From NCBI GenBank assembly GCA_040437565.1, contig JBDOQK010000030.1:248001-312000 (forward strand): a stretch of DNA of 64,000 bases, in the 5' to 3' direction. The notes under the pieces were generated by a model. It had not been told where the DNA came from. It did no database searches and worked only from the letters and a program-made list of their open reading frames with translations. The position numbers and the translations under genes are program-made. Source of the DNA: Albugo candida (lineage: Eukaryota). Positions 32,352-62,432 of this stretch are shown here, piece after piece. Position 1 is the stretch's first letter, and each line of letters opens with the position of its first letter.

Positions 32352-33599
32352 GGCATATCGTAACAAATTGTATAACAGTTATCCTGCTTTCATTATCCAA
32401 TCAAGCATGAAGCTAGCTTAACGCTCAAATGTTTTGTCTTAAATGCGGTTCATGTATCTAATGGAGAGGATGCTCCTTGATTTCTTAGGTGTGCATCTAA
32501 TTAAGACACCAACAACAATGCCATTAAAAAGAAGCTCAAAATAGTTTCTGGTGAGTAAGTCTCTGAATTGAACGCTGTTTATTCGCCTTTGAGATCCAGC
32601 TGACAGATAGATAACGCGATACATGAGCGGCTGTCGCAGTTACCTATGCAACGAAGCGACGTAATTTGCTGTTACCACATTTTTTTCGTTCAACTCGCCA
32701 TATGAATTTTCCGATTTCTTGCATACATCTCATACATCAGGACAGTGTTACTATCGTTCAAATTTATTAATTTTCTCCATACTTTAGTATAATTGTGTCA
32801 ACACCCGAAAGTACTATTAACAACTGTTACAAATGTTGTACGAAAGTTCAAGTACACGTACATAAACAACAAATTTACAGATTTTGCTAAATACACGCCA
32901 AAATTGGGTGACTGTATGCGAGGAGAGTCTCCTGTAAAATCTGTGTGAAGGGGAGATCTAATCTGAAACACATCATCGAACGGACTTTATGCGTGCGAAT
33001 GAGCCAATGATGATTTAAGAAACCCATAACAACCAATGTGCGCTCTCATAGCGTATAAGCGCGAGTGTGTACCGACTGGAATACACCAAATTACATGCTA
33101 CATGCTCCACAGGTACTCTACACACTCACTCTCTATGTAGCCATTGTGTACAATAGTCACAAATCTCTTCTAAGATTTCGTAATATCGAGAAAGACGGGA
33201 CATACAAATCCTGCGACATTGGGTAATGCACAAGTATTCTTTAGAGAGCGATGTGTGCAAATAGAGCATTATCTGCAGAGAAGCTATTTCAGCACTTCAT
33301 GCTCGACATGTAAGGACCGGGTTACAGCCAGTTACGTTTTTACAATGGAAATTTGGGAGATGTGAGGTCGACTGAACGATAAATTTTCGTTCGAAAATAC
33401 AATTTACTCTACTTTCACGTCTTCGTGGAATTACTTGGTGCGTCTACCGAAAAAAGTTCTGCACACTACCATCCAAGGTATTTATCAACGCCGTGATCCA
33501 ATCGGAATCGGCGTACACCATCACCGACTCGGCTGATTGATACTCAGTACTCACGAAGACTACTCACCTTCGTACCTGACCCAAGCTCCGACTTATTTC

Positions 33600-34766
33600 A
33601 TGCTCGAGGAAGCTCAACTATTACTTCACAATACAAACTCAACACACATAAGGTTACATTGGATGGCTTCGTCACCCAATACAAACAAGACACGAAAAGC
33701 AAAGGATCAGCATTATAAACAAGAGCAAGCAAAATCGACCGAATTCCATCATACTTCTGTACCATTGGAATCACATACGATGTTCAACACGGATCTCATG
33801 CCGTCGGTAGCGTGCGACCCGCAGATTCGATATAACTCATCAAATGCAAATATAACCCCGACATCAGAACCACACCAAAGTGCTGCGATGCGACTCAGTT
33901 TTATTATCAACGAGGAACCCGACACTGCTACTCCCAAATCCGAACAAGTGTACCCTCAGAAGCCTTTGAAGATTAAGGAGACGTATACTCCGAGGCTCAC
34001 GTATGGACTCAAGATTCAAGGCTTGAGGACTAATGCACTCACAGACTTTGACCCCAACTTGTTTTCCACACACTTGTCAGAAAATAACGCAAACGAAGAT
34101 CGAGTCGCTGTACCGCAGAGCTGTGACTCAGTGACAAGCATCCTTTCTCCGGCAGTCAGTATCAGCACTATAGGAAGCACTAGTGCAAACACAAGAAGTC
34201 GAACGGATCTGGATCTTCTCTTGAACAATATATGTGACAAGGCTGGATGTCATCGAACTGTGCGTGGGCCCCGAGGGACTCGATGTAAATATCACAAACA
34301 GAATCGATTTTGTCGCGCAGATGGATGCCAGAAAAGTGCAAAATCAGGTGGATTTTGTATCGCACATGGTGGAGGAAAACGGTGTTCGTATCCCGAATGC
34401 CCGAAAAGCGCCAAACAAGGCGGCTTATGTATTTCGCACGGTGGTGGTAAACGGTGTAGCGCACTTCATTGCACGAAATCGGCTTTATTGGGTGGATTTT
34501 GCTCCTCTCACGGTGGAGGAAGAAAGTGTCGCGTGGATCAGTGCACCAAAACAGCTTTGTTAGGAGGTACCTGCATCGCGCACGGTGGCGGTAAGCGTTG
34601 TCAAGTGAGCAGCTGCACAAAGAGCGCAGTTGGCGGTTTGTATTGCGTCTCTCACGGTGGAGGAAAGCGATGTCAGGACGTCGGATGCGATAAAGGGGCT
34701 GTTCGTCATGGATTTTGTATCCGACATGGAGGAAAACGGCAGCGCATGCGGCAAGAATTAGGATAA
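33600..34766 (+). CDS. Cys/His HGGG-repeat (WRKY19-like zinc repeat) protein
   Basis: Six 24-aa repeats C-x4-C-x-K-x-A-x5-C-x2-HGG(G) plus one degenerate unit; start codon uncertain (33600, 33663 or 33780). Confidence 0.88.
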   Translation: MLEEAQLLLHNTNSTHIRLHWMASSPNTNKTRKAKDQHYKQEQAKSTEFHHTSVPLESHTMFNTDLMPSVACDPQIRYNSSNANITPTSEPHQSAAMRLSFIINEEPDTATPKSEQVYPQKPLKIKETYTPRLTYGLKIQGLRTNALTDFDPNLFSTHLSENNANEDRVAVPQSCDSVTSILSPAVSISTIGSTSANTRSRTDLDLLLNNICDKAGCHRTVRGPRGTRCKYHKQNRFCRADGCQKSAKSGGFCIAHGGGKRCSYPECPKSAKQGGLCISHGGGKRCSALHCTKSALLGGFCSSHGGGRKCRVDQCTKTALLGGTCIAHGGGKRCQVSSCTKSAVGGLYCVSHGGGKRCQDVGCDKGAVRHGFCIRHGGKRQRMRQELG

Positions 34767-57759: not shown

Positions 57760-59798
57760 TATTTAGTGTCTTATTGTGTCTATATAGTAAGTAGCGTCTA
57801 CACGCTATTCAGAACACTAGGCTTCATAGTGAAGTGTATTCTTCTTGATTGGTTGATATACAGCGGTAATGTCAATTTTCATTTCTCAATAATTTATATA
57901 GATATGTGAAAGCTGCCAATAGTTCAACAAGATACCTTGCATGCTTCCGACATCACTTCTCCTAATCATCAGAATGTCAGTTTACAGTGTGTCTAATGTT
58001 TTCTCTTTCTCAGCAATGAACATCTGATTCTAATCGAGCGAATTGGGTTGACTCCCCTGACTCGTTGATTGGTTAGATATAAGAAACCAGTAAGAAAACC
58101 TTACGTCTCACCTGATTGAGATAGTGCAATACGACCGGATCTTATCATTTTCATACTCGTAAACGTAACCTTGTCTTGAATAATGTTCCTCCGCACACTA
58201 TATGAAGGGCGCATGCCGCGAACGCTAAACGTGCGTCATTGTGCTCCCATTTTCTCTATTGCTGTGGCTAACATCACCACTCAATAGCCGCGTTCGAACC
58301 CAGAAATTGCTTCGCATTGGCAGGCAGATACGGACACATCCAGAGAAATCGCAAAAGCTATCGAAGAAGCAGAACGCGGGAATGGTAGTGAGCACTCAAT
58401 CGAGAAAGGAATTCCGGCACTAATGCTGGCCAACATCAAAGAAACCTCATCTGACACTGCTGCAGATCGATGGCTTTCTACCTGCTTTGAGGAATTCGTA
58501 CATATTCGGGCGGATAATTTCGATCACACACCAATACAAACCCAGTTATCTCCCACAGGGCTCATCTCTATAGCTGCAGCAGATCTCGATCAGGAACCTC
58601 AAAGTAACGAGACGCCAGCGAGCCAGCCTTTTCTACAGAGGTTAGCACTCTGGAGCTTTCTGGTGAAATTGTATACTATACTCTCATTTCTGATTTAGAT
58701 TGAAAGACGGTTTATTACGAAATGTCTCGAGATCAACATCTGGTAGACGCAACGGAAGAGAAAATACCGAGGCGTCTTCACAATTGCGATTTTTGTCCAT
58801 TTTGCGAAGAGTGAATGAGCTCTCTTCTAAACATCAAGCGGTTGGAACGAATGTTTTGTACTCGCACAAAAGACTGTTTTGATGAAAGTGTTTGTAGCCG
58901 GACGATTTGGGTGGATTGTCGTACCCTCAGATTTTAAGACTTCCTACGTTCAAGTATAGTATACGTGAAATGGATCATCCAGATAAAACTCCGTGTTGTG
59001 GAGAAACGGATTTTAGCACCCTGTGAGTCATATGTATACCTTGTATACTATTCCGCTAATGCAAAGAATGTAGCTGTGCGATTTGCTGCTACACATTTGA
59101 AGCGGGTGAGGAAGTACGACTACTTTCTTGCTTTCATTATTATCATCGCGATTGCATCGATCCGTGGCTATATCAAAATCGTATGTGTCCCGTTTGCAAG
59201 TATGTCGTAATGGTAACGTAATATTTCAATGTATCAAGCTTTGTTTAAATGTAATTGTGCCCTTTACTGAGAGTCTCACTAAGTGAGCGATTCGACTGAT
59301 GTCGGCAGAAAATCTTACTCAATATTTGAATTTGACTATGTGAAATCAATTAAAAGAATTGCAGCAACCAAGCTCGTCAAATGGTACACTGCCACGTATG
59401 GTATACAGCAATCACATGTGCTAGCTGCCTTTATGGGTTTACTAATGACAATGACGTATTCAGGAATGTATGACTTGTCGCGTAAGAGTATGTACTACTT
59501 GAAGCTGAGTCAATACATGTTGTCGCATGCATTGTCTCATTACGTATTGTCCCCTCTGAATACGATTCCTTCCAACGTGTCGCAGAAGTGTTCAATTGTG
59601 CTACAAAATACTATGCGAAAGTACATAACGTGATCTGATACAAATCAAGTAAATACCCGAGCGATGAGACATAGGACGTGTTTCGTTTGAATGTAAAACG
59701 TTAGCAACAATTAGTCTCATCGCAAAATTAGTGCGTTGAAGTGTTGTCTATGAGAATTCAATCAAGTGAATTTTGTCCCTGCACAATATCTCTTTCAA

Positions 59799-59814
59799 TC
59801 ACTTTTGAATTTAC
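59799..59814 (+). promoter_or_regulatory. Oomycete INR+FPR core promoter element
   Basis: TCACTTTtgAATTTAC fits YCAYTYY + MWTTTNC, ending 15 nt before the ATG at 59829. Confidence 0.7.
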
Positions 59815-59828
59815 CAGTAAACTGAAAC

Positions 59829-60113
59829 ATGAAGCTATCAATCTGCGCACCAATTTTTCTTCTAAGCGTCGCCGTTGAAGGTCTTTCTGATGATATGCAA
59901 CACACGAAAACAATATTGAGAAATCCTCAAAATTATAACGGGGGTAGAATGAAGATGGGCAAGCACAGTAAATCAGACGGAACAGAGATCCATGAGATGA
60001 ATGCCGACATTATGCCTGAGAAGGATAATCGAAACAACAAGGGAGATACCGGGAAAAAACATCGAACACGGTTTGTAAAAGATCGTCAAGGCTCAGGAAA
60101 TACAAACAAATAA
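59829..60113 (+). CDS. Small secreted protein, effector candidate
   Basis: 94 aa, signal peptide MKLSICAPIFLLSVAVEG, charged mature region, INR+FPR directly upstream. Confidence 0.72.
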   Translation: MKLSICAPIFLLSVAVEGLSDDMQHTKTILRNPQNYNGGRMKMGKHSKSDGTEIHEMNADIMPEKDNRNNKGDTGKKHRTRFVKDRQGSGNTNK

Positions 60114-60223
60114 TTCGTAATATACACACTATTTACCTCAATTTATACTGTTTCATTGCACTGGTTGTCTGGTTCTTCAACTATTAGTTTTGAATAGCAC
60201 TTAAGATTTGCTTCAAACAGATA

Positions 60224-60341
60224 TTTTTCAGGCTTTCAGTTCGGTGGGCTCAAACCGCTGCCCCACACCGTGGATCGAACCAACGAACTCCGCCAGAATC
60301 TGCTTGCTCAAACCGTCGGAGCAGGTGCGGTCCCATATAAA
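60224..60341 (-). ncRNA. Structured GC-rich extension downstream of the 5S-like sequence
   Basis: Hairpin 60305-09/60319-23, helix 60238-47/60280-89, 10-mer direct repeat 60248-57 = 60306-15, B-box-like GGTTCGATCC 60272-81, A5 end. Confidence 0.5.
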
Positions 60342-60459
60342 GTAGGCACCACGCGGACTTCCCGCGTGGCCACCCATCCGAGTGGTACCCAAGCTTGAGG
60401 CTGCTTTATCTCGCATAGCAGACGGGATACGGTGCTTTCACCCTAATATGGCCGTCTAT
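60342..60459 (-). rRNA. 5S: Divergent 5S rRNA gene, pseudogene or 5S-derived element head
   Basis: 118 nt ATAGACGGCCATATTAGGGTGAAAGCACCGTATCCCGTC...AAGCAGCCTCAAGC...GGATGGGTG...GGGAAGTCC...GCCTAC followed by TTT; recognisable 5S loop C, box A and box C; helix I has 3 mismatches. Confidence 0.85.
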
Positions 60460-60675
60460 ATATATCGGCACACACCATCTTGTTCTGCAATCATCCGAAG
60501 CTTATAGTACTATTATTTGTGTAATAAACTCATTTTTATGCTGCATATTTGAAAATATCGAGTGTTCGAGTTGCTNNNNNNNNNNNNNNNNNNNNNNNNN
60601 NNNNNNNNNNNNNNNNNNNNNNNNNNNNNNNNNNNNNNNNNNNNNNNNNNNNNNNNNNNNNNNNNNNNNNNNNNN

Positions 60676-60848
60676 GCTTTATCTCGCATAGCAGACGGGA
60701 TACGGTGCTTTCACCCTAATATGGCCGTCTATATATATCGGTACACACCATCTTGTTCTGCAATCATCCGAAGCTTATAGTACTATTATTTGTGTAATAA
60801 ACTCATTTTTATGCTGCATATTTGAAAATATCGAGTGTTCGAGTTGCT
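60676..60848. repeat. 173-bp copy of 60403-60575 (5' half of 5S plus upstream) across N-gap, with one SNP
   Basis: Matches except C60469 vs T60742. Confidence 0.85.
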
Positions 60849-61049
60849 GTAACCGTTCTTAATTATAGTTTGAAGCCATTCGATACAAGTACTTGAATCA
60901 AATACGTGCGGCTAACAGGTCACATGATAGTCAATAAAGCTACAAATGAATCGATTGGATATGGAATGTTGCTCCAATACATGACTGTGTGTTAAAACAA
61001 CATTTATATTCTATTTATTATTATATTTCACATATACTCATATTTGTAG

Positions 61050-62432
61050 CTACAGCTCCAAAGCTTCAAGCTGCTTCTTCATTGCCATATTTTCTTGCAT
61101 TACAATGTCAAGACGTTTGTCTAATTCAGTTGCTAATTCCAACGCTTCATGCGCAACCCCTTCTGCTTCCGAACGCTCCTGGATAGCAATCGTAATCAAT
61201 TCTTTTGCATTTTCTAATTGCATATCTTGATAACTAATGTGCTCATCGAAAACGCAGACCACGCTGTCGATGTCGCCATGCGGCTGGTTGGAACTTTCAT
61301 TGTTCAATTCGGATATTTTCCACGAATCATCGCTTCCCGCCACTTTATTGTCAATGCATTGCTTATCTGAAAATTGTTTGGACCGAATGGGACGCAGAAG
61401 CTTGTCAATCGCTGAGGGAGTCGCTGCCTCTGAGAGTGTTCGTCGGAAAAAACTCAACTGCGGTTTCGTAATCGGACTCATCTGAGAAGTACGATTCTCG
61501 AGGGCAAGATCCCTCGCTCGTTTGTATCTGTCGATCTTCTCTTCAGCTGATTGAATGATTTTTCTGGTACGTTGCTCTACTTGCTCGTGAATAGTATCCT
61601 CTAAAAGTTTCTGCTTGCGATTTTGCTCTGCAGAAATTTCCTCTAATTGATACAATCGTGTTCGAAATCGTTTCAGATCTTCCTCAGATACTCGGACAAC
61701 ATTTGAATTGTTGGACTCAGAAAAGGTAGCTGATTCAGAATCAGAATCGAATTCATTATCCTCATCATCAACTGCAGTCAGTACCATACGTTGAAGCTCT
61801 CGCCGCGCCTGATGAATAGCCAGAGTCGATCCAGAAATGTTGAAATCATTTGCCACATTGTTTCGTATGCGTTCGTCCCGAAGTCGCACGTTCTGACTCG
61901 AAATATCTTCAGCATCTGAGTCCGTACCGGATTTTTGAACGACATATAGCTCTCTGCGTTGTTGTTCGAATGTTGAGTCAGGATGCACGTAGCCAGTTGC
62001 GTGTTTCGATGACTTTTGACTTTTGTATGACATAGAGCAGTGCAAATGACGATAGGAAACGAGCGAATGTTCTCTGAAAGTATCATTGAGATCATGAGGG
62101 AAAGAAGAGCTTCCACCATCATCGCATTGAGTAATGTCGGATAAAAGTGATAAAAACGAGATTTCATCGACAAAATCGGGGCTCTCGTCACTGTCTCGAC
62201 ATTGTATTGGACTGTCACGTCCGGACGTGAAAAAGGCGTTCAGCGATGTTACCGAATCCTTAGACGACGCTACTGTGGAAATAAACGAACTTTTGCTGTT
62301 AAGTCGCTTTTCTAAGTACTTGTACTCGTCCAATTCCGAGTCGTGTGGCTCCAGTTCTTTTGTACACTCTTCTGACTTTAGTGTTCGCGCAACCTTGCGT
62401 CTAAACGACTTTGTACGGTGGATGAAATCCAT
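61050..62432 (-). CDS. Hypothetical coiled-coil protein
   Basis: ~460-aa intronless ORF from ATG 62432; Ser-rich N-terminal half, heptad-rich E/K/Q/L segments. Confidence 0.75.
   Translation of the reverse strand: MDFIHRTKSFRRKVARTLKSEECTKELEPHDSELDEYKYLEKRLNSKSSFISTVASSKDSVTSLNAFFTSGRDSPIQCRDSDESPDFVDEISFLSLLSDITQCDDGGSSSFPHDLNDTFREHSLVSYRHLHCSMSYKSQKSSKHATGYVHPDSTFEQQRRELYVVQKSGTDSDAEDISSQNVRLRDERIRNNVANDFNISGSTLAIHQARRELQRMVLTAVDDEDNEFDSDSESATFSESNNSNVVRVSEEDLKRFRTRLYQLEEISAEQNRKQKLLEDTIHEQVEQRTRKIIQSAEEKIDRYKRARDLALENRTSQMSPITKPQLSFFRRTLSEAATPSAIDKLLRPIRSKQFSDKQCIDNKVAGSDDSWKISELNNESSNQPHGDIDSVVCVFDEHISYQDMQLENAKELITIAIQERSEAEGVAHEALELATELDKRLDIVMQENMAMKKQLEALEL

Follow-up and report, generated by a model that had tools for sequence, protein, structure and literature searches.

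A probable solitary 5S rRNA pseudogene beside a decayed low-copy repeat in the oomycete Albugo candida

A full-length but diverged copy of the 5S rRNA gene lies on the minus strand of the Albugo candida DNA analysed here (the window, a stretch of 64,000 nucleotides), and a GC-rich tail follows it after 7 nt. The pair is probably to be understood as a solitary 5S pseudogene, or 'orphon', beside a decayed copy of a separate repeat that carries remnants of tRNA-like boxes, the two being functionless as a unit. The original prediction, made by a model from the letters of the DNA, had joined them into one composite element, SINE3-like or a new non-coding RNA. The head is homologous to 5S rRNA and diverges from the bulk 5S of the genome; the junction with the tail is single-copy among the contig matches listed, and the tail has a paralogue of its own elsewhere; no target-site duplication flanks the pair, and the tail shows no significant fold. 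The parts of the locus are these, in coordinates of the window:

60341-60459, minus strand: diverged solitary 5S rRNA gene copy, a probable pseudogene or 'orphon' (Rfam RF00001, non-standard pairs, differences from bulk 5S)
60335-60341, minus strand: link of 7 nt from the 5S end to the start of the tail unit, TTT (60341-60339) plus ATAT (direct reading)
60231-60334, minus strand: GC-rich tail, apparently one decayed unit of an independent low-copy repeat, with tRNA-like box remnants (GC content, paralogue in run X2)
60306-60315, minus strand: first copy of the 10-mer CGGTTTGAGC (repeat finding, family D1)
60248-60257, minus strand: second copy of the 10-mer CGGTTTGAGC (repeat finding, family D1)
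60272-60281, minus strand: B-box-like motif GGTTCGATCC (direct reading; the letters of a paralogous contig differ at 60274, 60277 and 60282)
60224-60228, minus strand: A5 run, taken by the original prediction as the end of the element (direct reading)

The identity of the head comes from Rfam. Positions 60341-60459 match RF00001 over its full length (model positions 1-120), with 53.5 bits against a gathering score of 38 (E 2.4e-08), and give the sole gathering-level Rfam match in the 64,000-base window. What the original prediction had described is there: a 5S-like sequence on the minus strand that ends in TTT and passes into GC-rich DNA. The GC content of the head is 0.57. Its helices I-V are not intact: of the 34 pairs in the Rfam consensus structure, 8 are non-standard, 3 of them among the 9 pairs of helix I, in keeping with the three mismatches pointed out there before. 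A score that is above threshold but weak, together with these broken pairs, speaks for an orphon. The box C region, GGAUGGGUGGCC, is well preserved in the Rfam alignment, so that transcription by Pol III would still be conceivable. In the region of helices IV and V (60355-60377, minus strand) the energy fold gives a perfect 9-bp hairpin, as against the bulged helix of the Rfam consensus. Head and tail together (the whole 236 nt) fold with z -1.55, a value equalled or beaten by 17 of 200 shuffles. A 62-aa open reading frame at 60228-60416 on the minus strand was judged spurious, since its frame passes through the 5S sequence.

Pol III stops at a run of at least four T placed directly past the gene. 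The 5S copy offers just TTT at 60341-60339, short of that length; ATAT completes the link, and GGG follows at 60334. Direct reading finds no run of at least four T in the 7-nt link, and downstream of the 5S and tail the next such run does not come before about 60083. A scan for terminators of bacterial type found no terminator-like site within 59700-61100. As a ribosomal 5S gene, the window copy is most likely inactive.

The genome's main 5S family was recognised in Logan contigs of four public runs, aligned to 59700-61300 at 80% likeness. A filter left some records out of this contig evidence, and its findings hold among the matches listed. One run, X2, carries the same species label and amounts to 35.7 Mb of contigs; it may be related to the source assembly, and 8 listed positions set it apart from the window. 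The flanks of the locus lie in X2 on one 42-kb contig of depth 124 (124.2). Short X2 contigs with a summed word depth of about 23,000-82,000, as against the 124 of the locus contig, cover only 60348-60458 among the matches listed; such depths are not copy numbers, and serve here only for recognising the bulk 5S family. Window copy and bulk 5S differ at the following positions, given in plus-strand letters with the window letter first and with the share of X2 depth that has another letter than the window:

60407: T to A; 52,950 of 53,559 depth
60409: T to C; 50,340 of 53,559 depth
60410: C to T; 50,340 of 53,559 depth
60416: T to G; 62,084 of 62,208 depth

In X2, contigs that make up 94 to 99.8% of the summed depth disagree with the window copy at these positions. 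The same four bulk changes recur in run X15 (2,656 of 2,660 depth) and in run X20 (all depth), and an X15 contig of depth 2,656 is unlike the window 5S copy in 10 of 93 letters. The box A region takes in three of the four, at positions 50, 51 and 53 of the 5S, and with the bulk letter at 60409, pair 26-52 is C-G instead of the C.A mismatch of the window copy. These runs bear out the earlier judgement that the 5S part is unlikely to be ribosomal. Loose ends behind 60458 in X2 and X15 mark an upstream flank of the bulk copies that is unlike the locus; over 60341-60365, no high-depth bulk contig appears among the matches listed. As the bulk 5S differs from the window copy in sequence, and also in upstream flank, the original prediction's own alternative, in which the bulk genes share this sequence and the tail is their ordinary spacer, does not describe the genome. 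On this evidence, the window copy is a stray divergent one that has decayed from the bulk sequence. Its homology to bulk 5S begins at RNA position 2, and it ends at the T-run. Head and tail are identical in four runs from four studies, an identity that lies within one species and is uninformative on selection.

The tail can be followed on its own. Among the X2 matches listed, from contigs totalling 35.7 Mb, only the single-copy 42-kb locus contig spans the junction 60312-60347. The X2 bin that includes the junction, 60294-60347, has a depth of 170.8; by our accounting this is the 124.2 of the locus contig plus a part of the 130.3 of a second contig, whose match ends at 60311. That second contig, 2,247 nt long and at depth 130.3 approximately single-copy, carries a paralogue: its match to 60246-60311 includes 4 gaps and 9 letters unlike those of the window, the likeness goes on past 60311 as far as about 60334 (16 of 22 letters, by hand comparison), and the sequence beyond is different and not 5S. 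The tail core is thus not joined to 5S in this contig. The upstream part of the paralogue holds a tRNA D-arm-like motif, AGCTCAGTCGG, of which the window has a degenerate version, and a B-box-like motif comes about 42-44 nt beyond it. A further depth of about 57 on the tail has two of the insertions in common with the paralogue, but not the three substitutions; a third copy or an allelic bubble may account for it. Since the paralogue is without 5S and resembles the window to about 60334, the tail is taken to be an independent low-copy unit, with its 5' edge 7 nt past the 5S. The original prediction had named a plain 5S pseudogene with a single-copy tail as the outcome that would overturn it; the locus comes close to this, save that the tail is low-copy and not unique.

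Signs of dispersal were sought in several places. No other copy of head or tail occurs within the 64-kb window. No target-site duplication was found: the longest word common to the flanks is a 7-mer at 60515/60186, off the edges of the pair, and 395 of 1000 shuffles do as well. The metagenome contigs of JGI, a collection that seems to be without this organism, gave 0 matches to a 33-mer of the tail and to a fixed-N pattern. A 994-nt contig of X20 (organism E) has low likeness to 60151-60183 and to about 60268-60291, and was taken as a chance or T-arm-like match.

By composition, the tail stands at a GC content of 0.56 (0.62 for 60231-60334), and three measured flanks at 0.37, 0.34 and 0.31. 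Much of what had been read in its letters is there. The 10-mer does occur twice, at 60248-60257 and 60306-60315, and as a 10-nt direct repeat it exceeds chance, its length being reached in 2 of 1000 tail shuffles. Direct reading finds the 5-bp stem, the arms 60238-47/60280-89 form an inverted repeat that is 90% complementary, and the A5 run is present at 60228-60224; the run is too short for a poly(A) tail and is without a flanking duplication. The description of the tail as 'structured' is not borne out: the tail reaches a minimum free energy of -37.6 kcal/mol where its shuffles average -36.4 (z -0.29), 65 of 200 of these do no worse, and its best stem is equalled in 29 of 300 shuffles.

Type-2 promoters have 30-60 nt between their A and B boxes. 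The adjacent A-box-like and B-box-like motifs of the original prediction lie 4 nt apart; the B-box-like GGTTCGATCC is present, but the pairing of the two as a promoter does not hold at such a distance. A degenerate D-arm-like stretch is found at about 60323, 42 nt ahead of the B-like motif; a better form of this stretch occurs in the paralogue. The tail was rejected as a known RNA, having neither an Rfam family nor a tRNA cloverleaf by ARAGORN. At E up to 10, Rfam gave no match in 59800-61300 or 60205-60345 apart from the 5S and a 14-bit chance match, and none to RF00005 on the tail. ARAGORN called 0 tRNAs at its default setting (whole window) and at the 90% threshold, and gave nothing but malformed calls at 80% and 70%. 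TRF at a minimum score of 30 found no tandem repeat in the tail.

The surroundings of the locus include an assembly artefact that bears on the number of 5S copies. The features concerned, and the nearest reading frames, are as follows:

60576-60675, no strand: 100-N scaffold gap, one of nine such gaps in the window
60676-60848, minus strand: artefactual duplicate of 60403-60575, comprising the upstream region and 5S positions 1-57 (suffix/prefix identity 172/173)
61050-62432, minus strand: 460-aa open reading frame, the upstream neighbour, its stop codon and the 5S start being 317 nt apart without the overlap; no Pfam family
59829-60113, plus strand: 94-aa open reading frame with a hydrophobic, signal-peptide-like N-terminus, convergent with the 5S; no Pfam family

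The 173-nt duplicate that flanks the gap, which had escaped notice earlier, simulates a second 5' half of the 5S at 60676-60732. A second 5S copy or a tandem array across the gap was considered and rejected in favour of an unmerged contig overlap: the identity is 172/173, and the 42-kb contig of X2 spans the join, passing directly from 60575 to 60862 without the window's 13 nt at 60849-60861. There is therefore one 5S at the locus. Suffix/prefix duplicates of 26-255 nt are found at 6 of the 9 100-N gaps (5935, 14766, 20897, 47006, 49610 and 60576); with overlaps left unmerged in this way, repeats or frames that cross gaps in this assembly may be false. X2 and the window have 1 difference in 876 nt over 59700-60575, and 7 in 438 plus a 13-nt indel over 60862-61299. 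The contig joint may have brought different haplotypes or isolates together in the window. The low difference over 59700-60575 could hint at constraint, though on the whole block and not on the 5S and tail alone. Run X10, whose status as RNA is a guess and which may be DNA, has a 1,141-nt contig over 59700-60544 and another from 61050, with nothing between them among the matches listed.

Some other features of the window were seen in passing. The 94-aa frame at 59829-60113 (plus strand) may encode a small secreted protein of a plant-associated oomycete. In a 409-aa frame at 33537-34766 (plus strand), the WRKY19-type zinc-finger domain PF24906 is matched six times (E 2.6e-60). For a BRO1/ALIX protein encoded in the window, the closest named relative is one from Albugo laibachii (73% identity), followed by named matches from Phytophthora and other oomycetes at 31-38%. 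The protein atlas indicates a eukaryote, a stramenopile phylum being the commonest in its top cluster, and the oomycete placement of the original prediction stands.

Dispersed 5S pseudogenes, or orphons, are solitary 5S copies outside the main arrays, and are found in many eukaryotes. The window copy is like them in being full-length and outside the bulk family, with flanks of its own; it diverges by about 11% over 93 nt, its helices are broken and its T-run is weakened. It is unlike them in that a low-copy repeat with tRNA-like box remnants trails it after 7 nt, and in that the edges of its homology are the ends of the RNA. That the 5S and tail have no function as a pair is what we infer to be most likely; the route by which they became adjacent is a deduction of the same kind, and would run as follows. 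A 5S rRNA gene copy would have become separated from the genome's main high-copy family; mutations would then have collected in it, breaking helix pairs, changing three positions of the box A region and leaving only TTT at its end; 7 bases downstream would lie the decayed unit of a separate low-copy GC-rich repeat, with its own 5' edge and remnant A and B boxes of tRNA-like form. In this scenario, 5S and repeat unit would be neighbours in a 5S pseudogene locus, and not one amplified mobile element.

What sits least well with an orphon beside a repeat is the precision of the edges: 5S homology runs from position 2 to the T-run, and the tail comes 7 nt on in the same orientation. Boundaries that coincide exactly with the ends of the RNA fit an RNA-mediated origin, by retro-copy, better than a chance neighbourhood. 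A second reading, unlikely but with these edges in its favour, supposes a one-off chimeric retro-copy: a reverse transcriptase at work on RNA of the tRNA-like repeat switched to the 3' end of 5S rRNA, and the product was inserted as one piece. Template switching from tRNA-derived SINE RNA to 5S rRNA is the published explanation of HaSE3, in the part of PMC3272025 that was available, and the present case would match that proposal, as a SINE with a 5S head at its birth, here never amplified and since decayed. Both units are complete from their own 5' edges, and an A5 run comes after the tail. Against this stand the lack of a target-site duplication, the A5 run that does not convince as a poly(A) tail, and ATAT at the joint, a filler that this reading does not explain; with a single-copy junction, moreover, there is no comparison copy. 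Slightly less probable again is a fuller version, in which the locus would be an oomycete fossil of SINE birth, a single chimeric retro-copy that is putatively still read by Pol III from the internal 5S promoter, past TTT and into the tail.

SINE3, AmnSINE1 and HaSE3 are 5S-derived SINEs, and some of these are chimeras of 5S with a tRNA-derived SINE. The window locus is like them in its 5S head with recognisable A and C box regions, its unrelated body with tRNA traces and its A-rich end; it is unlike them in that the composite is single-copy, without target-site duplications, and without a LINE-like or long A tail. The available part of PMC10946416 places 5S-derived SINEs in reptiles, insects and fish, as well as in mammals, and 5S-bearing Cassandra TRIMs in plants and Ajax in ribbon worms. 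The locus shares with Cassandra and Ajax a 5S-derived sequence outside the 5S arrays; they carry the 5S promoter inside LTRs, whereas the locus is without an LTR pair, and its sole second 5S piece (60676-60732) is the assembly overlap.

A third reading would make the locus functional, as the source of a Pol III transcript: either a variant of 5S RNA, or a transcript of 235 nt or more that is driven by the internal 5S promoter, reads through the 5S end and has been exapted as non-coding RNA. The conserved box C region and full-length 5S architecture point that way, TTT is a weak stop past which readthrough into the tail is plausible, and the element is identical in the four runs from four studies. 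We hold this to be quite improbable. The broken helix pairs (8 of 34) and the bulk differences at box A positions 50, 51 and 53 of the 5S tell against a working gene; the tail fold is not beyond chance; with no run of at least four T until about 60083, the RNA would have no defined 3' end; and the identity between runs, being within one species, is silent on selection.

The nearest case in a compact genome is AfuSINE3 of Aspergillus fumigatus, which the available text of PMC5063351 describes as five related copies of 259-343 bp, two of them transcribed, with A, IE and C boxes that are poorly conserved and a Pol III terminator that is mostly missing, allowing readthrough. As far as that description goes, the element in the window is like it in its low copy number, compact genome, poorly kept boxes and missing terminator; it is unlike it in having one composite copy, at the window locus, among the matches listed, where AfuSINE3 has five. 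For Phytophthora infestans, fifteen tRNA-related infSINE families are cited in the same available text (PMC5063351). By that description, the tail paralogue is like the infSINEs in its D-arm-like motif with a B-box-like motif about 42-44 nt on; it is unlike them in that the tail is without a detectable cloverleaf, and in that about two copies are seen, not a dispersed family. A search by title and abstract brought up no oomycete report of a 5S pseudogene or a 5S-derived element; older work on oomycete 5S genes, such as that on Pythium arrays, lies largely outside the scope of such a search, as does work on the SINEs of P. infestans.

A true dispersed family of SINE3 type, with the composite of 5S and tail at several loci, is highly improbable: a 5S head on an unrelated body does resemble SINE3 and AfuSINE3, and in compact genomes as few as five copies can make a family (PMC5063351, available part), but the junction is on the locus contig alone among the X2 matches listed, the tail paralogue is without 5S, the 64-kb window holds no further copy, target-site duplications are missing, and two exact-pattern scans of JGI metagenome contigs gave 0 matches. 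With no significant fold in the tail besides, the SINE3-like character claimed by the original prediction is not supported. The locus has the head-plus-body layout of SINE3, but fails the tests of repetition and of target-site duplication, and is therefore not classed as SINE3.

The locus is thus most likely an object of an ordinary kind, one more case of a dispersed 5S pseudogene; the chance that it is a fossil chimeric retro-copy is small. In annotation it should be labelled as a 5S pseudogene, and not as a 5S gene or a tandem pair; false duplications are created by the scaffold gaps of this assembly, as at 6 of the 9 gaps in the window. If the chimeric retro-copy should prove true, the range of 5S-derived retro-elements would extend past animals and fungi to oomycetes, and the locus would give a rare view of how 5S composites arise. 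Were the locus in addition a fossil from the birth of a SINE, stramenopiles would have in it their first reported 5S-derived retro-element, at a stage before amplification.
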